In this document: piece by piece, positions 31,285-64,000 of the stretch
Numbering within the stretch: the first letter of the stretch is position 1
Layout of the letters: each line of letters starts with the position of its first letter
Assembly: GCA_009701885.1 (NCBI GenBank)
Contig: WLJH01000016.1
Location: 16,384-80,383, forward strand
Reading direction: 5' to 3'
Length of the DNA stretch: 64,000 nucleotides
From: Actinomycetota bacterium
GTDB lineage: Bacteria > Actinomycetota > Actinomycetes > Propionibacteriales > Nocardioidaceae
Made by a program: the position numbers and the translations under genes
Notes under the pieces: model-generated
Told to the model about the DNA's origin: nothing
Database searches by the model: none
The model's input: only the letters and a program-made list of their open reading frames with translations

Positions 31285-31306
31285 ACCCGGCGAGTGGACT
31301 TCTTCC

Positions 31307-32134: not shown

Positions 32135-32215
32135 AGGCAGGACCGGCACCACCCGACCGGCACCACCGACCAGCACCACCTGCTGCGCCACCCCACCCTC
32201 GAGAGACACCAGGAG

Positions 32216-32746: not shown

Positions 32747-32755
32747 GGCGCTGAG

Positions 32756-33850: not shown

Positions 33851-33851
33851 G

Positions 33852-36521: not shown

Positions 36522-36522
36522 G

Positions 36523-37911: not shown

Positions 37912-37915
37912 CCGG

Positions 37916-38803: not shown

Positions 38804-38806
38804 GGC

Positions 38807-41746: not shown

Positions 41747-41756
41747 CTGATCGATC

Positions 41757-41800
41757 TGCGCGCCTGTAGGGATTCGAACCCCAAACCTTCTGATCCGTAG
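41757..41800 (-). mobile_element. att site: 3' half of tRNA-Arg(ACG), genomic island boundary
   Basis: Minus strand CTACGGATCAGAAGGTTTGGGGTTCGAATCCCTACAGGCGCGCA gives anticodon loop (ACG), T arm and acceptor 3' strand. The 5' half is absent. Confidence 0.88.
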
Positions 41801-42089: not shown

Positions 42090-42397
42090 ATGACCCTGAA
42101 CCAGTCTGCCCTGCTCGAGCTCACCCAGATGCTGCGCACCGCTGATGGCGGCGATGCGATGCGATGCGTCAGATGCTCGGGTTCATGCTCCAAGCCCTCG
42201 TCGACGCCGAGGCCACCGCTGCGATCGGCGCAGCTCCGCACGAGCGGACCGAAGACCGCGTTGCGCACCGCAATGGCACCCGGTCCGAAACGGTCTCGAC
42301 GACAGCCGGCGACCTGAGCGTGAGGATTCCCAAGCTCCGCACCGGGTCGTTCTTCCCGACCCTGCTCGAGCCACGCCGCCGCGTCGACGTGGCGCTG
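42090..42397 (+). pseudogene. IS256-family transposase 5' fragment, frameshifted
   Basis: MTLNQSALLEL..., then after a GCGAT x3 run (42151-42165): LQALVDAEATAAIGA...RNG...TTAGDLSVRIPKLRTGSFFPTLLEPRRRVD. Confidence 0.88.
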
Positions 42398-42715
42398 CGC
42401 CCCGGTGGCCTCGCGATCAGCGTGGTGGGTCCCCCTGACCCGGCCTTCGCAGCCCAGCTGGGCAAGCCGCTGCTGCGCCCCGTCATGGCGCTCATGAGCC
42501 GCGGGGTCCGTCGCCGGGCCGCGAAGCTCGGGGTGCGCTACTCGTTCCTCTTCATGCGCGCCAGCGGCGAGCAGCTGGCCACGCTGGCGGCGTTGTACGA
42601 CGACGGCACCCTGCGTCCTGTCCTCGACCGCACCTTCGACTTCGACGACACCCTCGAGGCCGTGGCCCACGTGGAGCAGGGTCGCGCACGCGGCAAGGTC
42701 GTCATCACGCAGTGA
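42398..42715 (+). pseudogene. 3' fragment of NADP-dependent (Zn-ADH-like) oxidoreductase fused to the IS remnant
   Basis: RPGGLAISVVGPPD...YSFLFMRASGEQL...LRPVLDRTFDF...RARGKVVI. Confidence 0.8.
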
Positions 42716-42830: not shown

Positions 42831-44402
42831 CTACATGCCGTCCTTGATCAGCTCAGCGGCCTTCTCGCCGATGAGCATGGTCGGCGCGTGCGTGTTGCCG
42901 TGGGTGACCTTCGGCATGGCCGAGGCGTCCACGACCCGCAGGCCCTCGACCCCACGGACCCGCAGGCGAGCGTCGAGGACGCCCTCGCCCTCGACGCCGA
43001 TCCGCGCGGTGCAGCTCGCGTGGTAGGTGTGCTCCACGCCCGCCCGGACGGCCTGCTCGAGCTCCGTGCGGGTGCTGAACTTCTCGCCGGGGTGGATCTC
43101 GCGGCCGCCGTACAGCGCACGGTCGGCCAGCACCTGCCTCGCGCGCTCGATGCCGTCGATCATCGACGTCATGTCGTCGGGGTCCTCGAAGTAGTTGTTG
43201 CAGACCAGCGGCTTGCGCTCGGGGTCGGACGAGGCCAGCTTGACCCAGCCCTCCGACCGGGCACCGACCAGCGAGAGCCCGATGGCCAGGGCCTGGCCGT
43301 CGTACGTCGCGGCACCGTGCTCCCAGAAGTAGACCGGCGCCCCGATCATCTGCATGGCAGGAGCGTCGTCCTCCACGCTGGTGTGGAAGAAAGCGCCGGC
43401 CTCGCCGACGTTGGAGGTCAGCATGCCCTTGCGCCGGAGCAGGTACTTCACGAGCTCGGCCGGCTTCTCGGCGAAGGCCAGGTTGTCCCGGTCGTTGGTG
43501 TCCACGTTGACCAGATACATCGGGTGGTCCATCAGGTGCGCACCCACGTGCGGGTTGTCCACGACGGTCTCGATGCCGTGCTCGGCCAGGTGCGCGCTCG
43601 GCCCGATCCCCGAGAGCATCAGGAGGTGGGGGGTGTTGTAGGCACCAGCGCTGAGCACGACCTCGCGGCGCGCTCGGAAGGTCTCGATCTTCCCGTCCAC
43701 CCGGGCCACGACGCCGGTGGCGCGGCCGTTCTCGATCAGTACGCGGTGGACGAGCGCCTTCGGGGTGATGGTGAGGTTAGACTGCTTGCGGTGCGGGGCC
43801 AGGTAGCCGTCGTACGTCGTCCACCGCTGACCTCGGCGGGTGAACCGCTGGTACATCGAGGCGCCCTCCTGCTTGGCGCCGTTGAAGTCATCGGTGTGGC
43901 CGATCCCGGCGCGGACCATCGCCTCGACCATGACGCGCGACATCTCGCGGGCGTCAGGGGCATCCTCGATGTACTGCGGACCCGAGGAGCCGTGGAACTC
44001 GTCAGCACCGCGGCTGTTGTTCTCCATCCGACGGAAGAGCGGGAGGACCTCGTCGTAGGACCAGCCGTCGGCTCCAGCCTTGGCCCAGCCGTCGTAGTCG
44101 GCGCGGTTGCCGCGGATGTAGATCATCGCGTTCATGCCGCTGGAGCCGCCGAGCATCTTGCCGCGGGGCTGGTAGATCCGGCGTCCGTCGAGGTGCGGCT
44201 CGGGCTCGGAGTGGTAGTCCCAGTCGGTCGCCCCGTGGAATTGCTTGGCGAAGGCCGCCGGGATCTGCACGTTCAGATTGGGACGGCTGCGTCCGCCGGC
44301 CTCGAGGACCAGGACCGAGGTCCCCGGGTCCTCACTCAGCCGCCCGGCGAGGACAGCGCCCCCCGAACCACTTCCCACCACGATGTAGTCGAACTCGCGC
44401 AT
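42831..44402 (-). CDS. GMC-family oxidoreductase (AlkJ/choline dehydrogenase-like)
   Basis: [40 protein letters not shown]. Confidence 0.93.
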   Translation of the reverse strand: MREFDYIVVGSGSGGAVLAGRLSEDPGTSVLVLEAGGRSRPNLNVQIPAAFAKQFHGATDWDYHSEPEPHLDGRRIYQPRGKMLGGSSGMNAMIYIRGNRADYDGWAKAGADGWSYDEVLPLFRRMENNSRGADEFHGSSGPQYIEDAPDAREMSRVMVEAMVRAGIGHTDDFNGAKQEGASMYQRFTRRGQRWTTYDGYLAPHRKQSNLTITPKALVHRVLIENGRATGVVARVDGKIETFRARREVVLSAGAYNTPHLLMLSGIGPSAHLAEHGIETVVDNPHVGAHLMDHPMYLVNVDTNDRDNLAFAEKPAELVKYLLRRKGMLTSNVGEAGAFFHTSVEDDAPAMQMIGAPVYFWEHGAATYDGQALAIGLSLVGARSEGWVKLASSDPERKPLVCNNYFEDPDDMTSMIDGIERARQVLADRALYGGREIHPGEKFSTRTELEQAVRAGVEHTYHASCTARIGVEGEGVLDARLRVRGVEGLRVVDASAMPKVTHGNTHAPTMLIGEKAAELIKDGM

Positions 44403-44534
44403 GTCCAGCCCCTGACGTCGTCCTGTGTTGTGATGACCACCTCATGGTCACGCCTCGCGGCGCCTCCCGCTTGTCTGCAGGAACAAGGCATCGACGAGGA
44501 ATTGGGCGCCGTGCACAGAGCCTGCAGCCGCGGC

Positions 44535-45395
44535 TCACGACGCCTGCGGCGCGAGGAGGAAGCGGGAGACTCGCGGCCCGAGGTCGTCGGCACTCGTGAC
44601 CAGGCCCAGGTGCCCGTCCGCGTAGACGTGGAGCTCGGAGCGACGGATGAGCGCCTTCATGATCCGGGCGTTCACCAGGGGGATGATCGGATCGTCGTCG
44701 CCGGCGAGGATGAGGGTGCGCTGTCGGATCAGGGGCAGCCCGGGAAGGCTGCTCCAACCGCACCCTGCGAGGAGCTGGGACAGGTACCCCCAGCTGCTGT
44801 CCGCGCCTGGACGAGCGCCGAGCACCTGGCCCGCGAGCTCGGGCATAAGCCGCATCTTGCCGCCGTAGAGCTGGGCGGCCACCTCACGGGCGTAGGCGGC
44901 GTCGCGGTAGCGGTGCGGGGTCACCATCTTCGACAGCACCCGAGGGTGACCCGGGACCATGATCGAGCCCGTGGCCGTCGCGACCAGGACGAGCCGGCGC
45001 AGGGAGCACGGCTGCTGGAAGGCCATCTGCTGCGCCAGCCCCCCACCCCACGAGATGCCGAGCACGTCGTACGTCGGGTGGCCGAGCTGGCGGGCCAGCC
45101 GGCGCACGAGCTCGGCGAGCATCCACATCGTGTAGGGCACGGGCACGCTGGGCGACCCGCCCACGCCGGGGACGTCGAAGCGGATCACCTCGATCCGGGG
45201 GTCGATGTGGTCCACGAAGGCGTCGAGCAGCTCCAGCCGGGCCCCGATGCCGTTCACCAGCACGAGAGGGGGCTGCTCCGGGTCCGTCCCGGGTCGTACG
45301 GCGACGCGCAACCCGATCCCGTGGACCTCCACGATCCCCGGCGGGAGGGCCGCCGGGCCCGGTGCCTCAGCCTGGTGCTGCTGACGCCCCGTCAT
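44535..45395 (-). CDS. phaZ: poly(3-hydroxyalkanoate) depolymerase, PhaZ-like alpha/beta hydrolase
   Basis: NGIGARLE, FDVPGVGGS, lipase box GISWGG, GDDDPII, GHLGL. Coupled to phaC. Confidence 0.85.
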   Translation of the reverse strand: MTGRQQHQAEAPGPAALPPGIVEVHGIGLRVAVRPGTDPEQPPLVLVNGIGARLELLDAFVDHIDPRIEVIRFDVPGVGGSPSVPVPYTMWMLAELVRRLARQLGHPTYDVLGISWGGGLAQQMAFQQPCSLRRLVLVATATGSIMVPGHPRVLSKMVTPHRYRDAAYAREVAAQLYGGKMRLMPELAGQVLGARPGADSSWGYLSQLLAGCGWSSLPGLPLIRQRTLILAGDDDPIIPLVNARIMKALIRRSELHVYADGHLGLVTSADDLGPRVSRFLLAPQAS

Positions 45396-47101
45396 CGGTC
45401 GAGCACGTACCTGCCCGGGGCCGGGTCCAGCGCGGGATGCTGCGGCGAGCCGGGCGACTCCGGGGCGGGACGCAGCGGCCCCGAGCGCTCACTGAGCCAG
45501 GCGGCGTACAGCGGCCACCAGGACCCGCGGTGCTCCTCGGCCGAGGCCAGGAACTCCTCGGGGTCGGCGGGGGTGGAGACGGAGTGCCGGAAGGATGCCT
45601 TGGGATTGCCGGGCGGGTTGACCATCGCCGCCACGTGCCCGCTGTTGGACAGGACGAACTCACAGCTGCCCCCCAGCAGCTGGGTGGTGCGGTAGCAGGA
45701 CTGCCAGGGGGTGATGTGGTCGGCGACGGCCCCGATCACGAACGCGTCGACGGTGACGTCGGCCAGGTCGATCGGCACCCCGAGCGCAGACATGACCGCA
45801 GGCTCGACCAACGAGTTGCCGGCAGCGAGGTCCACGAAACCGGCGTGCAGGGCCGCCGGCATTCGTGTGCTGTCGGAGTTCCAGTAGAGCAGGTCGAACG
45901 CAGGCGGCGTCCTGCCCAGGAGGTAGTTGCTGACCCAGTAGTTCCAGATCAGGTCGTTGGGCCGCAACCAGGCGAACATCTCGGTCAGCGAGGACCCGTC
46001 GAGGTAGCCCCGACGGCGGCTGCGCTGCTTGGCCAGCTCCGCCAGCCGCGGGTTCATCAGCGCCCCGGCGGAGCCCGAGACCTGTTGGTCGAGCAGCGTC
46101 ACCGGCAGCGCGAGGGAAGCGACCTCCTCGAGGCCGCCCGTGGCGCCCAGGTAAGCGAGGGCCATCGTCGTGAGGATGCCGCCCGAGCAGGTGCCCCACA
46201 CCGAGGACTTGCTCGCCCCGGTGATCTCCCGGGTCAGCCGCATCGCGGTGATGATCGAGTGGACGTAGGCATCCATGCCCCAGTCCGCGTGCCGAGCGGT
46301 GGGGTTGCGCCAGGAGATGGCTAACACCTGGTGGCCGGCCGCGGTGAGGTGCTCCACCACGCTCCGGTCCGGTGCCAGGTCCAGCGCGTAGTACTTGTTG
46401 ATCGTGGGTGGCACGAGCAGCAGCGGCCGCTCGTGCACCTCCGGCGTCGTGGGGGTGTACTGCAGGAGCTCGAACATCGGCGCCCGGTACACGACGTACC
46501 CGGGCGAGACGGCCAGGTTGCCGCCGACCTCGAAGGCCGTGGTGTCCACCATGCTCGGCACCCGCGGCGCGCTCGACATGTCGCGCAGGAGCGAGCGGAT
46601 CCCGCGGATCCACGAGGCACCTCCGGTGTCGATCGCCTCCTTCAGGGGCGCCGGCGCCAGCGGGAAGTTCGACGGGGCCAGCGCGTCGATCACGTTGTCG
46701 ACCAGGAAGGAGAGCCGTTCCAGGTCCTTGACCGACAGCTCACCGTCGCGGAGCGCCTGGTGCGCCTTCTCGGCCACGACGGTGTGCACCTGGAGGAGTC
46801 GCCGGTAGAAGGGGTTGGACTCCCAGGCCGGGTCGACGAAGCGTCGGTCGTGCTTGGGGGGCGAGACCTCGGAGACACCCGCCGCGACCCGGGACAGCTC
46901 GCGCCCCAGCTCCACGGCCCTCGTCGCCGGACGCCAGGGGTGCCGGCCGACTCCACGCAGGAACCGCGCAGCGGGACCAGCGGGGAGTCCCCCTCTGAAG
47001 CCACCGATCGCGGCCCGGACCAGCGCGGTGTCGAGGGGGACGACGTGGTCGTGGCGCACCTCCTCGGCCGGGAGCTGCGGCATGCGGATTGCTGTGCTCA
47101 C
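45392..47101 (-). CDS. phaC: PHA synthase, class I/II type PhaC
   Basis: DRRFVDPAW, APSNF, FEVGGNLAVSPG, PPTINKYYALDL, catalytic GTCSGG, WLRPNDLIWNYW, DHITPW, SGH. GTG 47101 with ggagg RBS. Confidence 0.92.
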   Translation of the reverse strand: MSTAIRMPQLPAEEVRHDHVVPLDTALVRAAIGGFRGGLPAGPAARFLRGVGRHPWRPATRAVELGRELSRVAAGVSEVSPPKHDRRFVDPAWESNPFYRRLLQVHTVVAEKAHQALRDGELSVKDLERLSFLVDNVIDALAPSNFPLAPAPLKEAIDTGGASWIRGIRSLLRDMSSAPRVPSMVDTTAFEVGGNLAVSPGYVVYRAPMFELLQYTPTTPEVHERPLLLVPPTINKYYALDLAPDRSVVEHLTAAGHQVLAISWRNPTARHADWGMDAYVHSIITAMRLTREITGASKSSVWGTCSGGILTTMALAYLGATGGLEEVASLALPVTLLDQQVSGSAGALMNPRLAELAKQRSRRRGYLDGSSLTEMFAWLRPNDLIWNYWVSNYLLGRTPPAFDLLYWNSDSTRMPAALHAGFVDLAAGNSLVEPAVMSALGVPIDLADVTVDAFVIGAVADHITPWQSCYRTTQLLGGSCEFVLSNSGHVAAMVNPPGNPKASFRHSVSTPADPEEFLASAEEHRGSWWPLYAAWLSERSGPLRPAPESPGSPQHPALDPAPGRYVLDR

Positions 47102-47251
47102 GCGACCTCCTCCGGGCCGACTCTCGGCGCTGGCCCGGGGCCATCTTGTGGGCCCCCCGGCGAACGCCGCGAGGGCACTGAGCCCAAAGACCGGCGGCAT
47201 CCCTGGACTGCGTGCCCAAGCGCCTCCGAGCCGGGCGAGGCGGTCCGGGGC

Positions 47252-47476
47252 TCAGCGCGTCGCGATGAGCACCAGCGAACCCACGACGAGGAAGGCACCC
47301 GTGACCGTCATCGCCCGAGCACCCCGGGACATCGTGGCGCGCCGACGCTCGAGCACCTCCTCGCCCCCGAGGCTGCCCACCAGCAGGTCGAGGTGACGCC
47401 CGCTCCAGATCCCTCCTGCGAGGAGGAGCAGACCCAGCACGGGCAGGGCGATGAGGGTCGCAAGGTCCTCGCTCAC
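47252..47476 (-). CDS. small two-TM membrane protein
   Basis: GTG overlaps the upstream TGA. Two hydrophobic segments. Confidence 0.65.
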   Translation of the reverse strand: MSEDLATLIALPVLGLLLLAGGIWSGRHLDLLVGSLGGEEVLERRRATMSRGARAMTVTGAFLVVGSLVLIATR

Positions 47477-48588
47477 GGTTCCTGGCCCGCCGGGCCGCTC
47501 GGGGTGGCCGGCGGGGGCGTGCTGCCGGGGAGGTCGAGCCCGGGGAGGGAGGACGGGTCCGCTGGCCGGTAGTCCTCGGCGTAGGTGAGGTCGGCGCCCG
47601 CGACGACGTCGGTGAGGAAGGCCTGCCACGTGGTCAGGCCCCGGGCTGCGAGCAGGGTGGTGCGCAGCTCCTCACGGACCTCCTCGAAGCCCTGCGTACG
47701 AGCTGGTCGCGCGGCCGTGACCAGCCCGAGGTAGACGTAGCTGGCACCCGGCGAGCGGACCGGGCCGAACACCTGGCCGGGTCGGCTCCGGAAGGCCGCC
47801 GCGGCGAAGGGGCCCTGGAGCTGCCCGGCCGCGACGAACCCGAGGTCCCCACCCTGGGGCGCGGTGCTGGTGTCGAGGGAGCGGCGCCGCGCGACCGAGG
47901 CGAAGTTGCTCGGAGTGAGGCTCGAGCGCAGCGTGAGCGCCTCGGCACGGTTCGCTACGGCGATCGCGGAGATCCGACGGGTCCGGGGTAGGTCGAACTC
48001 CTCCGGGTTCGCCTCGTACGCGGACCTCACCTCCTCGGCCTCGATGGTGAGGTCGGCCGTGACCTCGCTGTAGAGGCGCTCGATCCGCAGCTGGCGCTCG
48101 AGCTCCTCGAGCACGTCGTCCTCGGAGACACCCTCGTCTGCGAGCGCATCCACGAACTCCGTCCGCCCGCCGGGGTAAGCAGCGTCGAGGAACTCCTGGG
48201 CGGCGCGGTCCAGGTCCGCCTGGCTGACCGTGACCTGGGCCTCGTCAGCGGCGGCATCCACCACCAGGGAGACCGCGAAGGACTGTGCAGCCAGCCGCCG
48301 GCCGTCTTCCTCGTCGAGGTCGGGCGCCTCGATCCCGTACATCGCCTGCTGCTCGACCAGGTGCCGCCGCAGGTCCGACTCGACGTACACCCGTCCGTCC
48401 AGCTCGAAGACGGCGTCCTCGGGCAACCCGCCCCACGGGCGCACGACGACCGTCACGGCGACCACGCCGACCACGGCCATGACGAGCGGTACGACGAGGC
48501 GCCACCGGCGCCACCGGCGCGTGACGGTGGCCTCCGTAGCCCCGTTGGCCGCGGCCCCGTCAGCTGCGGCCCCCTCGGTGTGGGTCAT
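47473..48588 (-). CDS. membrane-anchored SurA/PrsA-like parvulin foldase
   Basis: N-terminal TM, SurA-N-like region, VARRRSLD...QGGDLG...PFAAAAF...GPVRS. Confidence 0.8.
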   Translation of the reverse strand: MTHTEGAAADGAAANGATEATVTRRWRRWRLVVPLVMAVVGVVAVTVVVRPWGGLPEDAVFELDGRVYVESDLRRHLVEQQAMYGIEAPDLDEEDGRRLAAQSFAVSLVVDAAADEAQVTVSQADLDRAAQEFLDAAYPGGRTEFVDALADEGVSEDDVLEELERQLRIERLYSEVTADLTIEAEEVRSAYEANPEEFDLPRTRRISAIAVANRAEALTLRSSLTPSNFASVARRRSLDTSTAPQGGDLGFVAAGQLQGPFAAAAFRSRPGQVFGPVRSPGASYVYLGLVTAARPARTQGFEEVREELRTTLLAARGLTTWQAFLTDVVAGADLTYAEDYRPADPSSLPGLDLPGSTPPPATPSGPAGQEP

Positions 48589-50891
48589 GCCGGGACCTCC
48601 TGCGATGACCGGCGGGCGTCCTCTGCCGGCTCGGCGCCGTCGTCGTCCGCCCGTCGCGGCAGCGCGAGTGCCACGACCGCGGCCGACAGCCCGGCCCAGA
48701 CCACGGACATGGCCAGGACGATCGCAAAGTTCCGCATGACGTCGAGGTCGGAACCCAGCAGGACCAGGTAGCCGGCCGTCGAGGTGGACCCGGCGACGAC
48801 CACGCTGCGCCAGGGGAAGGCGCGGTGACGCAACATCACGGTGAACTCACAGCCCACAGCAGCCGTCAGCGACCCGAGCGCACAGGTGAGGGGGGTCAGG
48901 GACGCCCCCGAGACACGCAGGGCGAGCAGACCCAGCCCCGTGGCGATGGAGGCGGCCAGCAGGGCTCGGAGGGCGTCACCGCGGTGCCGCCACCCGAGCA
49001 CGAGCAGCAGGGCGACCGAGGGCGCCAGCACACCGCCGAGGTTCGCGACGAGTCGCGACTCGTCGAGCAGCTCGAACTCGCGCGCGGCCACCGCCGGGAC
49101 GCCCGCGATCACGACCTCGCTGCCCTCGGGGGGCGGCGGCAGCGTCCTGCGGATCGCCTCCAGCAGGGCGCCCTGCTCGGCGATGTCGCTGGGGACGACC
49201 CCGAAGGACATCGCGGTCGTGGAGGCATCGGCGCTGGAGACGGCCGAGAGGAGGTACGGCGGCATCAGGGCGTACGCCGAGCCGATCTGCTGCGCCGTGG
49301 GATCTGGGCCGAGGAAGCCGAGGAGTTGTGCTGGGGAGAGGATCGTGCGCAGCTGGTCGCCGAGCTCGGCCACGACGGCCTCACGAGCCTCGACCGACCA
49401 GGCCAACGTCTCCGGTGGTGCGGCAGAACCCGTCAGGAGCACGTCGACCTGTCCCGAGACGCCGAGGATCCGCTGGCTCTCGCTCGCCTCCGCCTCGACC
49501 GGCAGCCCCTCGGCCAGGCCGGCGAGGTCCGCCTTCAGCGGGATGCCGGGCAGCAGCACCCAGCCTGCCAGCGCGGAGACGGCCATGGCCCCGAGCACGA
49601 CCTGCGCCGTACGCCGCCCCCGCCGGCCGAGCGGCGCACCGCCGCTGTCGGCCGCGTCGTCGCGGACCGGCACCGTGGCCCCGAGCGCGAACCGCAGCAG
49701 CTGGCCGATCACCGCCGCTGCGATCACGCCGACGGCGATGAGCAGACCGAGCTGCTGCAGGAACGGGACGGGCGACAGCGCGGTCATGGCGAAGCCCGTG
49801 GCCGTGGCGATCGCGTTCGCGATCACCCGGCGCGAGGGACCGAACAGACCGAGGTAGATGGGCACGTCGCACCCGATGCCGACGATGGCCGGCAGGACCG
49901 CTACGAGCACGAGCGAGGCAGGCTGGTCCAACCAGCCGAGCAGCGCCAGGTCCAGCAGCACCGCGCCCCCGGCCGCGGCCAGGGGGATGAGGTTCGCGAA
50001 CCAGCGCTCCCGGCGGCGGAGCCGGCGGGCCCCGATGGTGAGCAGGGTGCCGACCGCCAGCACGGAGGCCAGGGTCAGGTATGGGACCTCGTACCTGGAC
50101 TGCTCCACCAGCCCGGCCAGCACCACCGGGGATCCGCTGACGATGGGCTCCTCGGCAGCGAGGTCGGCCTGTCCGACCGTGTCGCGGATGCCGTTGACCA
50201 GGGTCGCGACCTGACCCTGGGTGAGCCCACCCTCGGGGCGGATGACCAGGGCGATGGTGTCCTCGTCCGGCAGGACGAAGCGCAGGGTCGGGCGAGGCTC
50301 GTCGTCATCGAAGGCCACCGCGTCGACGAAGGCCTGGTTCGACAGCGTCGGCAGGCCCGCGGGAAGGGCCTGGGTCAGCAGGACGCCGTACCTCAGGTCG
50401 TAGGCACGCAGCGCCTCGCGCTTCGCCCGGGCGATCTCCTCGGGACCGCCACCCTCGGCCCGCGCCCGACGAGCGGCTTCCGCCACCACGTCCTGCCGCT
50501 TGAAGCTGATCCCGCTCAGGAAGTTCTGCGCACTGGCTGCGAGCTGGTTGAGGACCGTGCCGGGCCCGTACACCACCCTGACCCCGGGCAAAGCCGAGAG
50601 CTGGCCCTCGAGCGCGATCAGCTGCGGGAGCTTGTCGGTCGTCAGCCAGGGCTGCCCGGCCTCGGAACGGATCACCACCGTGATCGGGTCCGAGCCGAAC
50701 TGCTGCTCATCGAGCGTGTAGGCCTCCCGCGCCGGGTCCTCGGCGTCGAGGAAGGTCGCCACCGAGGTGTCGAACTCCAGTCGGCTCAGTCCGCCCACGG
50801 TGAGCACCGCCAGCACGAGCAGCGCCAGCGCCGCCACGACGCGTGAGCGTCGAGACGGCGCTGGCGCACCCGAGTGGTCAACAGCAGTCAT
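48585..50891 (-). CDS. RND/MMPL-family membrane protein
   Basis: 768 aa, two repeats of TM, large loop and 5 TMs. VYGPG, VSGSPVV, GIGCD, VIAGVPAV. Confidence 0.8.
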   Translation of the reverse strand: MTAVDHSGAPAPSRRSRVVAALALLVLAVLTVGGLSRLEFDTSVATFLDAEDPAREAYTLDEQQFGSDPITVVIRSEAGQPWLTTDKLPQLIALEGQLSALPGVRVVYGPGTVLNQLAASAQNFLSGISFKRQDVVAEAARRARAEGGGPEEIARAKREALRAYDLRYGVLLTQALPAGLPTLSNQAFVDAVAFDDDEPRPTLRFVLPDEDTIALVIRPEGGLTQGQVATLVNGIRDTVGQADLAAEEPIVSGSPVVLAGLVEQSRYEVPYLTLASVLAVGTLLTIGARRLRRRERWFANLIPLAAAGGAVLLDLALLGWLDQPASLVLVAVLPAIVGIGCDVPIYLGLFGPSRRVIANAIATATGFAMTALSPVPFLQQLGLLIAVGVIAAAVIGQLLRFALGATVPVRDDAADSGGAPLGRRGRRTAQVVLGAMAVSALAGWVLLPGIPLKADLAGLAEGLPVEAEASESQRILGVSGQVDVLLTGSAAPPETLAWSVEAREAVVAELGDQLRTILSPAQLLGFLGPDPTAQQIGSAYALMPPYLLSAVSSADASTTAMSFGVVPSDIAEQGALLEAIRRTLPPPPEGSEVVIAGVPAVAAREFELLDESRLVANLGGVLAPSVALLLVLGWRHRGDALRALLAASIATGLGLLALRVSGASLTPLTCALGSLTAAVGCEFTVMLRHRAFPWRSVVVAGSTSTAGYLVLLGSDLDVMRNFAIVLAMSVVWAGLSAAVVALALPRRADDDGAEPAEDARRSSQEVPA

Positions 50892-54731: not shown

Positions 54732-54732
54732 G

Positions 54733-57485: not shown

Positions 57486-58738
57486 CGGATCCTCGATCCC
57501 GTAGCGTCGGTCCAGGCCTGGCCCACGTTGCTGCCAGGCGCCGGCGTGAGGTTCTGGGTCACACCGGGAGGGGGGCTGTTGAACACGCCGATCGGCGTGG
57601 TCGTGCCCTCCTGCACCTTGATCCGGGCGACGTGGTATTGCCCGAGGTACTGCGAACCCGCGGAGGCCCAGTTGGTGAAGTAGCCGGTGATCTCCGGCGT
57701 GTAGGGCCGCAGGAAGGACAGGGCAGGAAGCAGACGACCCGTGGCCCGGTCGACCTCCGGCAGGAGCCGGGTCGAGGACATCAGGAGCTCGGGCGTGACA
57801 CCCAGAAGCTCGGCCACCTCGTCCAGCGCCGAGCGGGTGCTCGACAGGGTCGGGTTGAGGTCGCTCAGCAACGGCGACACCTCGTCGGTGAAGGCAGGCA
57901 GCGCCTCGACGGAGGTCGTCAGCTCATCGAGCAGCGGGCTGGCGGCCTCGACCGTTCCGGGCACCTTGTCCAAGGTCGCACGGGCCACCTCGAGCGTGGA
58001 CGGCAGCTCCTGAAGGGCTGCCGCAAGCGCCTCGTCCTGCGCCGCGAGGTCGGTCTGCTGGGCGTCGAGGTCACGGATCGTGGACCTGATCGACGCGCTG
58101 TTCTGGTCCAGGACGTCCATGAGTGCCGCCGTGCGGGTCACGACGTCGCGGATCGCGGGTCCGTCGGCGCCGATGCCACCCAGCACCTGGGCGAGTGCCT
58201 CGACGGCGGGACCGAGCTGCTCCAGCGTCGCGTTGACGTCGTCGCCACGGTTCGCCACGGCACTGTCGAGGTTGATGATGGTCGAGGCGAGTCGGTTCCG
58301 GGTCTCCTCGTCGAGCGCGGCCAGGACCTGGTCGACCTCGACCCGGTCGTCACCGCGGACCATGGCGTTGTCCGGCAGCGGGGCGGCGTCGCTGTCACCC
58401 GGGTTGATCTGGATGACGCGCTCACCGAGCACCGCCTTCCACTCGATCTCGGCGGTCGATCCCTCCGGCATCTCGTCGTACGGCGGCTCGAGGGTCACGG
58501 TCACCACGGCCTGGCCGTCCTTGGCCTCCAGGTCCGTCACCTTGCCCGCGTCGAAGCCGTCGACCTGGACGACCAGGCCCTCGACGACCACCGGGGCCGA
58601 GGGGAAGACCAGCTGGAGCTGGTAGCCGTCGCCGCGGACGAGCCGCATTCCCACGACGGTCAGGAGGACCGCTGCCACGAGGACCGCGGCCAGGCGAAGT
58701 CCGCGCCCGCCGTGGGCGCGCAGGTCACTGATGGCCAT
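57482..58738 (-). CDS. mce: MCE/MlaD-family protein (1st)
   Basis: GLVVQVDGFDAGKV, KAVLGERVIQINPG. Confidence 0.88.
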   Translation of the reverse strand: MAISDLRAHGGRGLRLAAVLVAAVLLTVVGMRLVRGDGYQLQLVFPSAPVVVEGLVVQVDGFDAGKVTDLEAKDGQAVVTVTLEPPYDEMPEGSTAEIEWKAVLGERVIQINPGDSDAAPLPDNAMVRGDDRVEVDQVLAALDEETRNRLASTIINLDSAVANRGDDVNATLEQLGPAVEALAQVLGGIGADGPAIRDVVTRTAALMDVLDQNSASIRSTIRDLDAQQTDLAAQDEALAAALQELPSTLEVARATLDKVPGTVEAASPLLDELTTSVEALPAFTDEVSPLLSDLNPTLSSTRSALDEVAELLGVTPELLMSSTRLLPEVDRATGRLLPALSFLRPYTPEITGYFTNWASAGSQYLGQYHVARIKVQEGTTTPIGVFNSPPPGVTQNLTPAPGSNVGQAWTDATGSRIR

Positions 58739-59538
58739 CAGTCCATCCCCAGGGGGCCGGCGGAGTCACCGCTGAGGAACTGGCGCACGAAGGCGTCCTC
58801 GGAGTTGAACGCTTCCTCGGTGGGGCCGTAGTGGATCCGCTTGCCTTGCCACACGAGCGCCACGTAGTCGCTGACCTTGCGCGCCGTCGGGATGTTGTGC
58901 GTGACTAGGACGTAGGTCCCGCCGTGCTCGGCGTGCACGTCGAGGATCAGGTCGTTCAGCAGCGACGTCCGCACGGGGTCCAGACCCGAGTCGGGCTCGT
59001 CGAAGAGCACGACGTCCGGGTTGAGGACCAGCGCACGGGCAAAGCCGGCGCGCTTGCGCATGCCGCCGGAGACCTCGTTCGGCAGCTTGCCGAGGGCCGA
59101 CTCCAGGCCGACCTCGCTGAGGCGCTGGAGGACGATCGAGCGGATCTCCTCCTCGTCCTTGTCCGTGTGCTTGCGCAGGGGGAAGGCGACGTTGTCGTAG
59201 ATGTTCATCGACCCGAAGAGAGCGCCGTCCTGGAACAGCACGCCGTAGCGCTGGCGCATGGCGTACTTCTCCGCGCGGGTCATTTTCGAGACCGGAGACC
59301 CGAAGAAGACGATCTCCCCGGCGTCGGGCTCGAGCAGGGCGACCATGTGCTTGAGCAGGACCGACTTGCCGGTACCGGAGGGACCCAGCACCGTCGTGAT
59401 CGAGTCACGCTTGAAGTCCAGGTCGAGACCCTGGAGGACCTTGAAGTCCCCGAAGGCCTTCTCGACTCCGCGCACCTCGACAGCGTTCTGCTCGGAGGTC
59501 GCCTTGCTGTCCGACGCGTAGGGCAGGGTGGTAGTCAC
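58738..59538 (-). CDS. mkl: Mkl/MceG/MlaF-type ABC ATPase
   Basis: GPSGTGKS, LFQDGALF, VSGGMRKR, LFDEPDSGLDP, VTHN, EDAFVRQFL. GTG 59538. Confidence 0.92.
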   Translation of the reverse strand: MTTTLPYASDSKATSEQNAVEVRGVEKAFGDFKVLQGLDLDFKRDSITTVLGPSGTGKSVLLKHMVALLEPDAGEIVFFGSPVSKMTRAEKYAMRQRYGVLFQDGALFGSMNIYDNVAFPLRKHTDKDEEEIRSIVLQRLSEVGLESALGKLPNEVSGGMRKRAGFARALVLNPDVVLFDEPDSGLDPVRTSLLNDLILDVHAEHGGTYVLVTHNIPTARKVSDYVALVWQGKRIHYGPTEEAFNSEDAFVRQFLSGDSAGPLGMD

Positions 59539-59549
59539 GTGAAAATCCT

Positions 59550-60434
59550 TCAGTTCGCGATGGGCGCATTGGGCGAGAGGCCCCAGAACAGCTGCGTACC
59601 CAGGAGTCCGATGATGTGGATGAGCACCATGTTGAGGATCATCGAGCGCGCGGTGGCCCGCCCGACGCCGACGGGACCTCCGCTGGCGTTGAACCCGAAG
59701 AAGCACCCGACGAAGACGATCACCGTGCCCATGGCCATGATCTTGATGAGGGAGAAGGCTAGGTCTCCTGGCGATTGGTAGAGCCAGAAGATGAAGGAGT
59801 AACCACCTGGTGACGTAGCCGCGAGCTGGTCGACGACGACCAGCTTCTCCGCCAGGAACATCAGCGCCAGCCCGACGATGTAAAGGAAAGGCATGGCCAG
59901 CCAGGCGCCGACGACGCGCGAGGCGACGAGGTAGGTCATGGAGTCGATACCCATGACCTCGGTGGCGTCGATCTCCTCCGAGATGCGCATCGAGCCCAGC
60001 TCGGCGACCAGGCCGCAGCCGACCTTCGCGGCGAGGATGTAGCCCCACATGTAGGGACCCATCTCGCGCAGACCGCACCAGGCGGTGAAGATGCCGGAGT
60101 AGAGCGGGGCGCCGATCTGCTTCAGGGTGTAGGCACCCTCGATGCCGCACTGGGCGCCGATGACGAACATCATCAGGAAGATGATGAGTCCGCTGGACAG
60201 GACCAGGATCGAGGCCTGTCGGAAGACTTCGGCGGGGTACTGCCGCAGACCCGGCATCGCCCGGAAGGTCGCCATGGAGAATTTGGAGAGCTCTCCGAAC
60301 GTCGTGAGGGCACCGCTCATCTGTCGGGAGAACGATGCGACCGACACGTCGACGGTCTCGTAGGTCGTCTTGCGGTCACGCCGGTCCTGGCGCGATCGGT
60401 CTGTCACGGACTCGTTGTCGTCGAGCATGGTCAT
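59550..60434 (-). CDS. yrbE: YrbE/MlaE-family permease B
   Basis: REMGP, KVGCGLVAELGSMRISEEIDATEVMG, GPVGVGRAT. Confidence 0.92.
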   Translation of the reverse strand: MTMLDDNESVTDRSRQDRRDRKTTYETVDVSVASFSRQMSGALTTFGELSKFSMATFRAMPGLRQYPAEVFRQASILVLSSGLIIFLMMFVIGAQCGIEGAYTLKQIGAPLYSGIFTAWCGLREMGPYMWGYILAAKVGCGLVAELGSMRISEEIDATEVMGIDSMTYLVASRVVGAWLAMPFLYIVGLALMFLAEKLVVVDQLAATSPGGYSFIFWLYQSPGDLAFSLIKIMAMGTVIVFVGCFFGFNASGGPVGVGRATARSMILNMVLIHIIGLLGTQLFWGLSPNAPIAN

Positions 60435-60441
60435 GAGCAGG

Positions 60442-61359
60442 TCACCTCGCAACCTGGATGCCCGGGTAGAGCCCGAGCATGATGGTCGTGAAGACGTAGT
60501 TGAAGATCCAGATCACGGCGAAGCTGATGACGACGGCCTGGTTCACGGCCCGGCCGACTCCAATCGAGCCGCCCTTGGCGTTGAGGCCCTTGTAGCAGCA
60601 GATGATCCCGATGAAGAACCCGAAGATCGTGGTCTTGATGACGCTGCCGAGCAGGTCCTGCGTCGACGCGTTCGACCAGAAGTTCGCGAGGAACGCGCCC
60701 GGGGTCGCGTCGAGGATCGGCACGGCAGCGATGAAGCCGCCGATTACGCCGCAGACGAGGGCGAAGATGACCAGCAGCCCGGTCATGAAGGTCACCGCGA
60801 TGACGCGGGGGATGACGAGGACCCGGATCGGGTCGATGCCCAGCACCTCGAGCGCATCGATCTCCTCGCGGATGCGGCGGGCGCCGAGGTCGGCGGTGAT
60901 GGCGGTGCCGACCACGCCGGCGACGATCATCGCGTCGATCCAGGGGGCGAACTCACGGACGCTGGCCATGATGAAGAACGAGCCCAGGCGCTCGGGAATG
61001 CCGAACAGGGAGTAGATGTTCCCGCCCTGCAGGCCCGGAGCCCCGAGGCCGAAGGCGATGCAGGAGACGGTCAGCGGGATGAGGCAGAGCTTGAGGATCG
61101 CGTGCATCTGGTCGCGGACGTCGCCCCAGTAGCCCCGGGGCTGCATCACGGCGGACACCACCACGACCCGGGCCAGCGACATCATCTCGCCGGTCTCCGT
61201 CAGGGCGGAGAGCAGCATCCCGGACGACTTGCGTCGCCGGGGCGGCTTCACCGCGGGGGGGCCACTCAGGGCTGCGGGACCCACCGCGACAGCGCCGCCG
61301 GCGCCGACTGGTGGTGGTGCGACGTGGGTGTCGGGAGCTTCAGCCACGGTTGACTCCAT
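60442..61359 (-). CDS. yrbE: YrbE/MlaE-family permease A
   Basis: REFAP, ITADLGARRIREEIDALEVLGIDP, GGSIGVGRAV. Confidence 0.93.
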   Translation of the reverse strand: MESTVAEAPDTHVAPPPVGAGGAVAVGPAALSGPPAVKPPRRRKSSGMLLSALTETGEMMSLARVVVVSAVMQPRGYWGDVRDQMHAILKLCLIPLTVSCIAFGLGAPGLQGGNIYSLFGIPERLGSFFIMASVREFAPWIDAMIVAGVVGTAITADLGARRIREEIDALEVLGIDPIRVLVIPRVIAVTFMTGLLVIFALVCGVIGGFIAAVPILDATPGAFLANFWSNASTQDLLGSVIKTTIFGFFIGIICCYKGLNAKGGSIGVGRAVNQAVVISFAVIWIFNYVFTTIMLGLYPGIQVAR

Positions 61360-61652
61360 TCATCTACTGCCCTGAGACGGAAAGGTCCCTGGGGAACCCA
61401 ACGGCCACGATCCCTGGCGGTGTCGGGACGACGCCCACATCGGCGAGCCGGCTCTTCCCAGAGCCCGGCCGGTGGTGACGCAGGACACTGCCAGGGCCCA
61501 GACTGTAATGACGGTCACGGTCATCGCGAGCGGGTCACGGGCACACTTTTGTGCGGGCATTCTGTGCCTGGTGCACAACCCCTAACTGGGTGGCCACGTG
61601 CACACTCGGGCGTGTCCCGGTAGGGCCGTCCGCCCTCAGGGGACCTACAGCA

Positions 61653-62768
61653 ATGACGGAGAAGTCGATCGTGGGTGAGCAGCAGCTCGGGGAAGCGGCG
61701 TCGGCTGCCGATGAGGCAGCGGGCGACGCTCGCCGCCCGCGGCTGGCACGTCTGGCGGGCTCTGGCCGTCGCCGTACGGTCGTCCTCGGGCTCGCCGCAG
61801 CCCTGGCATTCGCCGGCGGAGCGTGGCTGGTGACGGAGCGGGGCGAGGGCGAGAGTCCGGCCACCGCTGAGGCGGCCTTCGTCATCGACGACACCGAGGT
61901 GTCGGCCGGTGACATCGAGGACCGCGTCGAGGTGCTGGAGGTGCTGTACGGCTTGGCGGTCCCCCAGGAGGACGCCGAGCTGGAGGACTTCCGTCGCGAG
62001 GCGGCGCGCACCTTCGCGGCCACCCTCCTGATCGGGCAGGAGGCAGCAGCCCGCGGCGTCGCCGTCGACGAGGCGGAGGTGAGCGAGGCGATCGACCGCT
62101 TCGTCGGCGAGCTGTTCGGCGGAGACCGCGCGCGCTTCGAGTCAGCACTGGAGGACGGTGGGATCAGCATCGATGCCGTCCGCGACGAGGTGAAGCTCCA
62201 GCTCGACGGACAGGCCCTCTTCGAGCTGGTCACCGGCGGGGTGGAGGTGTCGCCCGCCGAGGTGCGCGCGGCGTACGACGCCGAGCCTGTCGCGTGGGCC
62301 GTGCCGCCCCGCCGGCGCCTCGCTGCCATCGTCACCGCCGACCCCGCCACCGCGCGGCGAGCCCTCGACGAGGTGGAGGCGAGCGGTGACTTCGCAGCAG
62401 CCGCCAGGCGCTTCACGCTCGACGACGCGACCCGGGACCAGGGGGGCCTCCTGGGCACGTTGACCCGGGCACAGCTGGACCGTCCCTTCGCGACGGCCGC
62501 CTTCGACGCCCCGGTCGGCGGGTACTTCGGTCCCGTCCGCACCGACAGGGGTTGGTATGTCGGTCATGTCGTGCGCGCCTTCCCACCGTTGCGCTCGTTC
62601 GGCCAGGTGCGCGAGGCGGTGGAGCAGAGCTTGGTGGGCCAGCGCTCCCTCCTCGTGTGGGAGTCCTTCGTCGAGGAGCAGCTCGCTGCGGCGGACGTCC
62701 GCTACGAGCCGGCGTACGAGCCGCGTCCCGATGACGGGACCGGCACCCTGATTCCAGGGGGTCCGTGA
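61653..62768 (+). CDS. second membrane-anchored SurA/PrsA-like parvulin foldase
   Basis: N-terminal TM, AARRFTLD...QGGLLG...PFATAAF...GPVRT. Clear paralog of 47473..48588. Confidence 0.8.
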   Translation: MTEKSIVGEQQLGEAASAADEAAGDARRPRLARLAGSGRRRTVVLGLAAALAFAGGAWLVTERGEGESPATAEAAFVIDDTEVSAGDIEDRVEVLEVLYGLAVPQEDAELEDFRREAARTFAATLLIGQEAAARGVAVDEAEVSEAIDRFVGELFGGDRARFESALEDGGISIDAVRDEVKLQLDGQALFELVTGGVEVSPAEVRAAYDAEPVAWAVPPRRRLAAIVTADPATARRALDEVEASGDFAAAARRFTLDDATRDQGGLLGTLTRAQLDRPFATAAFDAPVGGYFGPVRTDRGWYVGHVVRAFPPLRSFGQVREAVEQSLVGQRSLLVWESFVEEQLAAADVRYEPAYEPRPDDGTGTLIPGGP

Positions 62769-63403
62769 TGAAGCTGGTCCAGGTGGAGGACCCGGCCGTC
62801 GGCTCCTTCGACCTCGAGGACGGTGAGGTCGGCGTCCTCCTGGGTCGGTCCGGGGCAGGGAAGACGGTCCTGATCAAGAAGTTGCTGGGCTTGGACCGGC
62901 GCCTGATCGCGCGCCGCGGGTCCCCGCTCTCCCACTCGTGCGCCTACGTCCCGCAGTCCGACGGGGTGCTGCTCGACCTCACCGTGCTCGGGAACGTCAC
63001 GTGCCCGGATCCCCACGTGGCCCCAGTGCCCCAGGAGCGAGCCCTGGACTGGCTCGACCTGGTGGGGCTGCGTGCCCGGGCCAGCAGCGCGGCTTCCGAC
63101 CTGTCCCTCGCCGAACGTCGGCGGGTGGCCCTGGCCAGGGCGCTGTCACGGCAGAAGCCGTTGCTCATCCTGGACGGGGACTTCGACCACACCCTCGACG
63201 CGCTGCTGCGGGACCTGCTGGCGACGGTGCCGCACCTCTGCAGCGTGCTCACGACCTCCTGCGTCGCCGACATGCGGGTGTGGAAGGCGGACCGGGTCGG
63301 CGTGGTCGAGGGCAGCCGCTTGATCGCAGTCGGAACGATGGGTGACCTGGTGTCAAGCCTCGACCCCGACGTGCGTGCCGCCCTGAGCTGGACGATGGCA
63401 TGA
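62765..63403 (+). CDS. degenerate ABC ATPase (Mkl/MlaF-like)
   Basis: Walker A GRSGAGKT intact. Signature LSLAE, Walker B LLILDGD (no Glu), no switch His. Tail GTMGDLVSSLDPDVR. Confidence 0.75.
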   Translation: MMKLVQVEDPAVGSFDLEDGEVGVLLGRSGAGKTVLIKKLLGLDRRLIARRGSPLSHSCAYVPQSDGVLLDLTVLGNVTCPDPHVAPVPQERALDWLDLVGLRARASSAASDLSLAERRRVALARALSRQKPLLILDGDFDHTLDALLRDLLATVPHLCSVLTTSCVADMRVWKADRVGVVEGSRLIAVGTMGDLVSSLDPDVRAALSWTMA

Positions 63404-63789
63404 GCGCCCCGGCCCACGGGCACGCGCTGGACGAGACCGCACTGGTCAGGGGCGCGTCGAGCGGCTTCACAGTGCTGATCATCGGCGAGCTGATGTCGCC
63501 GGTCGTTGCTGGCATCCACCCGATGATCGGGCTGCTGTGGCTCTCGTTCGTCGGAGCCGCCGGATTCGTCGTGGCCGGGAGCCGGGTCGGCTTGGCCCGT
63601 CGTACCTGGCTGCAGGGCGCCCTCGCGGCACTGGCTGCGCTGACGCTCACCATCCCGCTGCGGATGCTCGTCGGGCTCGACACCGCGGGGCAGTGGTACG
63701 CCGTGATGGTCAGTGCAGTGTTCGGCCTGGTCGTGGGCGCCATCGCCGGCCGCAGCGCCGGTGCGATCCGCGACCGCACCGACGCCTGA
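63400..63789 (+). CDS. four-TM membrane protein
   Basis: ATGA overlap. Four hydrophobic segments. Confidence 0.7.
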   Translation: MSAPAHGHALDETALVRGASSGFTVLIIGELMSPVVAGIHPMIGLLWLSFVGAAGFVVAGSRVGLARRTWLQGALAALAALTLTIPLRMLVGLDTAGQWYAVMVSAVFGLVVGAIAGRSAGAIRDRTDA

Positions 63790-63814
63790 GCCCAGCGACT
63801 CCCCCAGCCCCGGG

Positions 63815-64000
63815 TCAGACCCGGGCGACCGCCTTCAGCAGCCCTGCCAGCGCGGCGTCGGGGTCGGCCAGCACTCCCCTGTCCGGGGAGAGCCCCTCGA
63901 CGATGGCGCGCTTGCTGAACATGAAGTCCTGAGGACGGTTCACGCAGTCGGCGGCGACCACCTGTCCCTTCGCCAGGTAGAAGCAGGTGAAGTCACGACC
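63815..64000 (-). CDS. ferredoxin reductase C-terminus (5' part outside window)
   Basis: Manual translation GRDFTCFYLAKGQVVAADCVNRPQDFMFSKR...LADP matches the reductase C-terminal domain of P450/dioxygenase-type ferredoxin reductases. Confidence 0.8.
   Translation of the reverse strand, partial: GRDFTCFYLAKGQVVAADCVNRPQDFMFSKRAIVEGLSPDRGVLADPDAALAGLLKAVARV

Follow-up and report, generated by a model that had tools for sequence, protein, structure and literature searches.

Two alkane-oxidation systems are among the described systems closest to the locus analyzed here. In Pseudomonas putida GPo1, the alk proteins (AlkB, AlkJ, AlkH, AlkK, and AlkL) and the phaC1-phaZ-phaC2 genes for medium-chain-length polyhydroxyalkanoate (PHA) together provide an uptake aid, a terminal hydroxylase, a GMC-type enzyme, an aldehyde dehydrogenase (ALDH), an acyl-CoA synthetase, and a PHA synthase with a TIGR02240-family PhaZ, and these functions are encoded on separate replicons. 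AlkJ of that strain is a GMC-type alcohol dehydrogenase. In the second system, alkanes are hydroxylated by a cytochrome P450 encoded in the order ferredoxin-CYP153-ferredoxin reductase, a layout found in the alkane-hydroxylase operons of Alcanivorax, Marinobacter (the source of CYP153A33), Dietzia, and Mycobacterium sp. HXN-1500, and class I operons of this kind are regulated by an AraC-type protein. How Gram-positive bacteria take up alkanes is poorly understood. Here we describe a gene cluster containing an Mce transporter cassette, a phaC-phaZ pair, and a CYP153A operon, located in and just beyond a 64,000-nucleotide stretch (the window; contig C8:16384-80383) of a draft genome (3.96 Mb, 78 contigs, 72.7% G+C) that is probably a Nocardioides, to judge from the source names of its nearest protein homologues. 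A first-pass annotation had proposed that the window carries a possible island for uptake, oxidation, and storage of hydrocarbons, and the Mce importer, GMC oxidoreductase, phaC-phaZ pair, and ferredoxin reductase that it named were all found where it had placed them, on the minus strand.

The best explanation of the locus, to which we give a probability of roughly 0.6 on the basis of sequence comparison, is an acquired catabolic cluster for aliphatic hydrophobic compounds that combines passage through an Mce system, oxidation by CYP153, and overflow storage as PHA. An Mce ABC system (YrbEA and YrbEB, an MlaF ATPase, and six Mce proteins) would, together with an RND-superfamily protein, parvulins, and small membrane proteins, move the substrate through the envelope, and a class I system of ferredoxin (Fdx), CYP153A, and ferredoxin reductase (FdR) would then hydroxylate its terminal methyl group. 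The alcohol could be converted to the acid by dehydrogenases, for which an ALDH-family protein and possibly the GMC enzyme are candidates, and acyl-CoA synthetases and an acyl-CoA dehydrogenase (ACAD) would feed the product into beta-oxidation. PhaC and PhaZ would buffer surplus hydroxyacyl-CoA as PHA, and a PucR-type regulator probably controls the gene set. The predicted route shares the logic of the GPo1 system. It differs from GPo1 in that the hydroxylase is a P450 rather than AlkB, the uptake candidate is an Mce ABC system rather than the AlkL porin, a single PhaC of an actinobacterial clade falls below the cutoffs of both class I and class II, and all functions lie in one neighborhood.

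The CYP153A operon

The window ends within an FdR gene, of which it holds the last 61 codons (63815-64000; 186 nt). Coordinates above 64000 refer to the continuation of C8 past the window end (10.1 kb; L001). Genes were called from open reading frames and third-position G+C content and were named by Pfam, NCBIfam, and PDB sequence searches, which gave the following assignments around the window end:

63815-65083 (L001:699-1967), minus strand: FdR, 422 amino acids; Pyr_redox_2 (E = 5e-66) and Reductase_C (E = 3e-31)
65076-66479, minus strand: CYP153A P450, 467 amino acids; E of ~1e-213 to CYP153A33 (PDB 5FYF)
66523-66843, minus strand: 2Fe-2S ferredoxin (Fdx), 106 amino acids; Fer2
67113-68399, minus strand: PucR-type regulator; HTH_30 and GGDEF_2

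The P450 matched the solved structures 5FYF, 8HGD, and 8B2P, scoring 713 to 715 bits against 5FYF and 8HGD over residues 12 to 465, an alignment estimated by eye to be ~70% identical, and it was 66 to 70% identical to other CYP153 genes of the genus. As P450 nomenclature sets >40% identity for a family and >55% for a subfamily, these values place the protein within CYP153A. A heme-thiolate loop, FGFGVHRCMG, was present at residue 406 and an I-helix signature, LLIVGGNDTTRN, which includes the motif GGNDTTRN, at approximately residue 298. The redox partners expected of a class I system, a 2Fe-2S ferredoxin and an FAD reductase, are encoded alongside: the CYP153A stop codon overlaps the FdR start by 8 nt, the ferredoxin gene lies 43 nt upstream of CYP153A, and the full-length FdR matched putidaredoxin reductase (1Q1R) at an E value of 2e-105. 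Thus, the operon resembles described class I CYP153A operons in its three components, their order (ferredoxin, P450, reductase), and its I-helix and heme motifs, with a very strong match to solved structures, and differs in that its regulator is PucR type rather than AraC type and in that it is embedded in a conserved Mce and phaC-phaZ neighborhood.

The first-pass annotation had anticipated an oxygenase, a ferredoxin, and an AraC or LuxR regulator past position 64000. The oxygenase is found just past the window end as CYP153A and the ferredoxin lies upstream of it, whereas the regulator found there belongs to the PucR type. Among the outcomes that, according to that annotation, would have spoken against its proposal were the lack of an adjacent oxygenase and a reductase belonging to an aromatic or steroid pathway, and the overlap of the CYP153A and FdR genes excludes both. 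A role of FdR in steroid or aromatic metabolism was rejected because of the same overlap.

Upstream of the PucR gene are genes for an AMP-binding acyl-CoA synthetase and then a 569-amino-acid ALDH-family protein. A LuxC-type acyl-CoA reductase was considered for the latter and rejected, as only the Aldedh family was matched. Farther right on C8, a second acyl-CoA synthetase gene and an ACAD gene broken by the contig end are oriented divergently. Promoter and terminator scans were uninformative in the 72% G+C DNA of the cluster, and a search for an operator motif common to intergenic sequences of this cluster and its related arrangement B (see below) returned only chance 10-mers.

The genome encodes other candidate hydroxylases. 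One is another CYP153, which shares 66% identity with the island copy and is encoded in an 844-amino-acid frame together with NAD_binding_1 and 2Fe-2S Fer2 domains (C2:90685-93219, plus strand; L131:10686-13220); it has the appearance of a self-sufficient CYP153-PFOR-type fusion of natural origin. Long CYP153 frames of this kind were also seen in genomes G172 (810 amino acids) and G279 (865 amino acids). On C7, an AlkB-like FA_desaturase-rubredoxin fusion of 485 amino acids (C7:20286-21743) is followed by a TetR regulator gene (C7:21991-22605; L172:211-1668 and 1916-2530). In addition to its two CYP153 genes, the host thus has a further candidate alkane hydroxylase encoded on the chromosome.

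The Mce cassette

Characterized actinobacterial Mce systems include Mce4 (cholesterol) and Mce1 (fatty acids) of Mycobacterium and the mce4 system of Rhodococcus jostii RHA1, and mycobacterial Mce operons carry genes for Mas accessory proteins 3' of mceF. The window cassette consists of an operon-like run on the minus strand and a divergent trio on the plus strand:

60442-61359, minus strand: yrbEA, MlaE/YrbE permease
59550-60452, minus strand: yrbEB, MlaE/YrbE permease (MlaE E values for the yrbE pair, 2e-54 and 9e-62)
58738-59538, minus strand: MlaF/Mkl-type ABC ATPase, between yrbEB and mceA; ABC_tran (E = 2e-26) and MlaF NF008809 (213 bits)
57482-58738, minus strand: mceA, MlaD
55986-57485, minus strand: mceB, MlaD
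54733-55989, minus strand: mceC, MlaD
53439-54731, minus strand: mceD, MlaD
52183-53442, minus strand: mceE, MlaD
50888-52186, minus strand: mceF, MlaD
48585-50891, minus strand: MmpL/HpnN-like RND-superfamily protein, 768 amino acids; 4-nt overlap with mceF
47473-48588, minus strand: SurA-like parvulin peptidyl-prolyl isomerase 1, 371 amino acids; Rotamase_2, Rotamase, and SurA_N_3; 4-nt overlap with the RND gene
47252-47476, minus strand: conserved 74-amino-acid membrane protein, last gene of the cassette, with homologues in related cassettes
61551-62768, plus strand: SurA-like parvulin 2 (Pfam), divergent trio
62765-63403, plus strand: degenerate ABC ATPase (Pfam), divergent trio
63400-63789, plus strand: 129-amino-acid membrane protein, divergent trio (whole trio, 61551-63789)

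Two MlaE and six MlaD proteins are thus encoded contiguously on one strand, as expected of an Mce operon. The RND protein, both parvulins, the 74- and 129-amino-acid membrane proteins, and the degenerate ATPase had not been named in the first-pass proposal. The six Mce genes span 50888-58738 with start and stop codons that overlap or abut, and Mce4_CUP1 was matched by three of the six proteins in addition to MlaD. Most junctions from yrbEA to the parvulin gene are 4-nt overlaps or abutting, and 51 nt then separate the cassette from phaC. The MlaF-type ATPase retains intact motifs (Walker A, GPSGTGKS; the LSGG-type signature, VSGGMRKR; and DEPDSGLD), and its homologue in the related Logan contig L154 is 266 amino acids long. 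The ATPase of the divergent trio has an intact Walker A motif and carries LSLAE and LLILDGDFD where the signature and Walker B motifs are expected.

The RND protein had no Pfam match at an E value of ≤0.001, and its residues 562 to 741 matched HAE3 of NCBIfam. An AlphaFold2 model of the protein (pLDDT, 85.4; pTM, 0.80) was compared with known structures by Foldseek, and the best matches were MmpL4, MmpL5, HpnN, MmpL3, NPC1L1, and Patched, with E values of 3e-17 and weaker and TM values of ~0.6. Because of these matches, the modeled protein is assigned as a predicted lipid-type RND transporter. The first parvulin gene holds an identical position in every homologous cassette, and 74- to 76-amino-acid homologues of the last membrane protein, which had no Pfam match, follow the parvulin gene in L154, L157, L161, L163, and L174.

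The window system is like known actinobacterial Mce systems in having two YrbE permeases, six consecutive MlaD proteins, and an Mkl/MlaF ATPase. It differs from mycobacterial systems in what follows mceF, where Mas/Mam-type accessory proteins were sought and none was found and where the MmpL-like RND protein, a parvulin, and the 74-amino-acid protein are encoded instead, and in the divergent trio of parvulin, ATPase, and membrane protein. It also has no steroid-catabolism genes near the cassette. Moreover, its ATPase is encoded inside the operon; in Nocardioides and further genera, Casali and Riley found the Mkl gene directly ahead of operons of this type (PMC1810536). We conclude that the window system, by its predicted gene content, is a distinct subtype of Mce transporter.

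The phaC-phaZ pair

Synthase-depolymerase pairs of this kind are known from actinobacteria, including the phaC-ORF4 pair of Rhodococcus ruber. The pair in the window lies directly downstream of the Mce cassette:

45392-47200, minus strand: PhaC, PHA synthase, 602 amino acids; PhaC_N (E = 3e-52)
44535-45395, minus strand: candidate PhaZ-type intracellular PHA depolymerase, 286 amino acids; TIGR02240; 4-nt overlap with phaC

PhaC matched the structure of Cupriavidus necator PhaC (5HZ2) at an E value of 2e-98 and contains, besides the synthase domain, the GTCSGG box with Cys338 and the motifs ADHITPW and SGHV. It scored 583 bits against the NCBIfam class II model (cutoff, 855) and 484 bits against the class I model (cutoff, 623), both below cutoff, and it is thus placed in neither class, on which the polymer chain length would depend. 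The depolymerase candidate scored 246.4 bits against TIGR02240 (cutoff, 250.6) and has the lipase box GISWG. A search of the genome found phaC in single copy, and exact-sequence lookups of the window PhaC and of P0008 returned no match.

The context of the pair was compared at 80 other actinobacterial loci with PhaC homologues of 47 to 55% identity. phaC was paired with phaZ at 72 of the 80 loci and accompanied by an acyl-CoA synthetase gene at 42, and an ACAD gene was also often nearby. As in R. ruber and in R. jostii RHA1, the depolymerase encoded after the synthase in the window is of the P. putida type and contains a GxSWG box; RHA1 has three phaC/phaZ sets similar to the window pair and makes short-chain PHA (PMC2667194). 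Unlike other actinobacterial pairs, the pair of the window and that of arrangement B are physically linked to CYP153 and Mce genes, and the window PhaC was 64% identical to the arrangement B PhaC, whereas its identity to the other 80 homologues recovered from actinobacteria did not exceed 55%.

Four Logan contigs carry a close relative of the window phaC in split form: L154 (13742-15479), L155, L170, and L171 (Logan SRR31802786, SRR31802787, SRR31802810, and SRR31802811). In L154, the N-terminal part is 77% and the C-terminal part 93% identical to the window protein. All four contigs end ~160 bp after phaZ.

Conservation of the neighborhood

Related sequences showed the cluster in more than one arrangement. 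Arrangement A is that of the window, and it is shared by L154, which is 84 to 99% identical across the Mce cassette and keeps the same order through phaZ. Arrangement B, found in a metagenome-assembled genome of Nocardioides sp. (GCA_039767735.1) and in many ENA contigs, has the order tRNA-Thr, Mce cassette, trio of membrane protein, degenerate ATPase, and parvulin, Fdx-CYP153-FdR, and PhaZ-PhaC-ACAD. Identities of its proteins to those of the window were determined (CYP153, 80%; ferredoxin, 76%; reductase, 71%; PhaC, 64%; PhaZ, 68%; and Mce parts, 59 to 91%). In arrangement C (Logan ERR14789951), genes for an ALDH (71%) and a PucR regulator (61%) lie directly upstream of the cassette, and neither CYP153 nor phaC was found within 10 kb downstream. 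The divergent trio accompanies the cassette in all three arrangements. The Mce cassette, the CYP153 system, and phaC-phaZ thus appear, from these comparisons, to stay together through rearrangement in related Nocardioides.

In arrangement B, the cluster begins ~440 bp after a tRNA-Thr(CGT) gene (L164:8582-8655) and may likewise occupy a variable site associated with a tRNA gene.

More distant copies of the cassette (39 to 44% identity) are followed by Atu genes encoding geranyl-CoA carboxylase subunits, AtuA, and enoyl-CoA hydratases (L161:13691-20652 and L163:13903-21774), which points again to an aliphatic hydrophobic substrate. A distant cassette in Actinomycetospora is followed by unrelated genes.

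A second Mce lineage, with YrbE proteins 34 to 46% identical to those of the window, was found beside Fdx-CYP153-FdR in three genomes of the genus (G066, G007, and G238). In G066 (C9:3716-20753) and G007 (C1:4482414-4507023), Fdx-CYP153-FdR is followed, in this order, by acyl-CoA synthetase, PucR, yrbEA-yrbEB, and Mce genes, with mlaF last. In G238 (C3:350007-362315), yrbEA directly follows FdR, and no synthetase, PucR, or mlaF match was recovered there. None of six CYP153 loci examined outside the genus had Mce genes within 20 kb. Since the window genome holds only two Mce systems, a chance adjacency of Mce and CYP153 genes is unlikely; in a 4-Mb genome with two Mce systems, the chance of an Mce operon falling within 20 kb of a given CYP153 locus is, by our rough estimate, a few percent.

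In the searched literature, a link of Mce proteins to CYP153 or to alkanes was limited to general suggestions from work on polyethylene and proteomes, so that Mce proteins have been suggested as alkane carriers from proteomics only, and the cluster itself was not described. Each component family is known. What appears to be undescribed in that literature is the conserved neighborhood of CYP153 and a distinctive Mce cassette, joined by phaC-phaZ in two arrangements, and also the makeup of the cassette, with its internal ATPase, MmpL-like RND protein, two parvulins, and degenerate ATPase. Two Mce lineages are repeatedly tied to CYP153 in Nocardioides, one of them with an unusual RND partner, foldases, and a degenerate ATPase, and a conserved gene set of this kind makes alkane uptake in Gram-positive bacteria genetically testable. 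Moreover, the cluster includes the one PHA synthase gene that was found in the genome, and this linkage suggests a route from hydrocarbon to polyester that is compact and transferable and that would be of interest for bioremediation and for upcycling of alkanes or polyethylene-derived waxes.

Acquisition and probable island borders

tRNA genes were sought with ARAGORN, whereas repeats were sought through inspection of the sequence and genome-wide blastn comparison. No whole tRNA gene was found in the window by ARAGORN. A 53-bp perfect direct repeat at 41748-41800 (minus strand) consists of the 3' half of tRNA-Arg(ACG) and 10 nt downstream and is 100% identical to C7:85624-85676, within and just past an intact tRNA-Arg(ACG) gene (C7:85593-85666). 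The fragment is a probable attachment site marking the left border of an island, and its orientation places the inserted DNA to its right. An island start at 42831 had been proposed in the first-pass annotation, and the probable border lies ~1 kb to the left of that position. Between the two is a further mobile-element trace:

42164-42715, plus strand: transposase remnant, a Mutator-family N-terminal piece in an in-frame fusion with the C-terminal portion of a zinc-type dehydrogenase

The remnant matched Transposase_mut at an E value of 3e-20 (residues 2 to 78, corresponding to profile positions 27 to 103 of 379) and ADH_zinc_N_2 at 3e-19.

The repeat and the intact tRNA gene are on different contigs, C8 and C7, and the intervening DNA is unassembled. 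Directly after the intact tRNA gene is a type I restriction-modification system of HsdM, a NucS-like or specificity gene, and HsdR (C7:85863-92974; L010:5864-12975; 61 to 68% G+C), which probably represents the opposite end of this island. The end of C7 is a 148-bp repeat that is common to five other contig ends. An extension of the island through the right end of C8 was attempted and failed, as C8 stops inside the ACAD gene, which has copies on C30 and C21 that both lead into housekeeping genes. The ACAD N terminus has a 97% identical copy on C30 (168-516), a C-terminal piece is present at the start of C21 (1-777) beside transhydrogenase genes, and the second acyl-CoA synthetase, in the C8 region 88268-90503, is 94% identical to a copy at C13:7086-8669. 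This recent duplication of the synthetase and ACAD genes breaks the assembly. The arrangement B contigs also end in the ACAD gene.

Distribution among relatives was examined in 200 species of the genus for homologues of the RND protein and in 401 sampled genomes of the class for CYP153. No RND homologue of >43% identity was found in the 200 species, and CYP153 was present in 11 of the 401 genomes, this genome included. Within the species set, the genome closest to this one is G066, in which the proteins of the left flank are 96 to 99% identical. Neither the island DNA nor phaC was found in the G066 genome, which is 87% complete. Comparison of candidate empty sites indicated that G023, G071, and G041 have the tRNA-Arg gene beside the phosphoenolpyruvate carboxykinase gene, as in C7, with other genes on the 3' side; the contigs of G066 break at both flanks. 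We conclude that acquisition of the cluster is well supported by these sequence signatures and that an island origin is plausible. Of the island proposed in the first-pass annotation, the acquisition is thus supported, by the tRNA-Arg repeat, the transposase remnant, and the absence from the G066 sequence, and the size and right border are not.

The GMC oxidoreductase

A GMC gene lies 132 nt beyond phaZ:

42831-44402, minus strand: GMC flavoprotein oxidoreductase, 523 amino acids; GMC_oxred_N (E = 2e-48) and GMC_oxred_C (E = 2e-31)

The protein scored 529 bits against the NCBIfam choline dehydrogenase model, below the cutoff of 605, and its best PDB matches were 8B7S (a chloramphenicol oxidoreductase), choline dehydrogenase, and alcohol oxidases. 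It is thus assigned, by similarity, to the choline-dehydrogenase/alcohol-oxidase clade. Of 12 further CYP153 loci that were examined, only one had a homologue (45% identity), which lay ~13 kb away from the operon encoding the hydroxylase. The first-pass annotation had given the enzyme an AlkJ-like role, which proved to be an analogy at the level of the family for a gene outside the conserved set.

Alternative explanations

Several observations weigh against an acquired catabolic cluster for aliphatic compounds that stores the overflow as PHA. Those Mce systems whose function is known import, to our knowledge, sterols or fatty acids and not alkanes, and MmpL-type RND proteins are typically exporters. 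Neither Mce genes nor a true CYP153 gene was found within 10 kb of phaC at any of the 80 actinobacterial loci, consistent with phaC-phaZ being a general actinobacterial module that is usually tied to acyl-CoA synthetase. No gene for an R-specific enoyl-CoA hydratase or a phasin was seen in the cluster, and MaoC-like genes are on other contigs. In L154, the closest relative of the island, phaC is split over two frames at approximately residue 341, near the catalytic cysteine box, and thus PHA function is not always retained. The GMC gene lies at the decayed edge of the island, and in relatives it was not found beside the cluster. No integrase gene was found in the assembled parts of the island or by the intact tRNA gene, integrase genes being on other contigs; the right border was not located in the assembled DNA; and synteny with G066, whose genome is only 87% complete, also breaks at the flank. 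Finally, the related genomes of the neighborhood comparison are non-independent samples.

In one alternative, the same enzymes act on another substrate, with fatty acids, fatty alcohols, or acyclic isoprenoids imported by the Mce system and omega-hydroxylated by CYP153A. The closest solved relative, CYP153A33, is an omega-hydroxylase of fatty acids and primary alcohols, characterized Mce systems carry fatty acids and sterols, distant cassettes adjoin Atu terpene-utilization genes, and the AlkB-rubredoxin fusion could already handle alkanes in this host. We nevertheless consider this unlikely, as hydroxylation of alkanes at the terminal position is the activity for which the CYP153A family is chiefly known, the operon has the layout of alkane-hydroxylase operons, and the window cluster has no Atu genes. 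The cassette of Mce, RND, and parvulin genes might alternatively maintain envelope lipids or export them, remodeling the surface or releasing surface-active lipids upon contact of the cell with hydrophobic substrates. The predicted fold of the RND protein, which is like those of the lipid exporters MmpL3, MmpL4, MmpL5, and HpnN, would fit such a role, as would two membrane-anchored SurA-like foldases and a degenerate ATPase, which suggest assembly of an envelope complex, and the general function of Gram-negative Mla systems in lipid homeostasis. Such a role seems improbable, however, for a cassette repeatedly linked to catabolic genes (CYP153, Atu, and ALDH) and not to lipid biosynthesis, given that tested actinobacterial systems with six Mce proteins are importers.

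A different possibility is that the locus is a mosaic with no common pathway, in which recombination has assembled four independent pieces of cargo: the Mce operon, phaC-phaZ, the GMC gene, and the CYP153 operon. The context of phaC-phaZ at the 80 other loci, taken alone, argues for a mosaic, as do the remnant of a transposase and the fragments of decayed genes at the island edge, the GMC gene that is not conserved with the set, the lack of CYP153 and phaC within 10 kb in arrangement C, and the frameshift in phaC of the nearest island relative. In contrast, the same combination has been kept through at least two rearrangements at 60 to 80% protein identity, CYP153 has an independent link to another Mce lineage, and adjacency by chance was estimated at roughly a few percent, all of which makes a mosaic very unlikely. 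The acquired catabolic cluster remains the reading that we prefer, and a stronger version of it would make the cassette of Mce, RND, parvulin, and small membrane proteins a dedicated trans-envelope importer of alkanes or aliphatic hydrocarbons, a Gram-positive counterpart of AlkL/FadL-type uptake that, with CYP153 and PhaC-PhaZ, forms a mobile, self-contained module from hydrocarbon to polyester. We regard this specific version as tentative and on balance doubtful.

Left flank of the probable island

To the left of the tRNA-Arg fragment, the region at 31229-39916 carries a cluster of radical-SAM, amidohydrolase, GNAT-AIRS, nitrilase, flavoprotein, and GT4 genes that is 96 to 99% conserved in G066. 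Among these left-flank genes, only GT4 matched two other species of the genus, at 74 to 76% DNA identity, and thus the left flank is itself a variable region.

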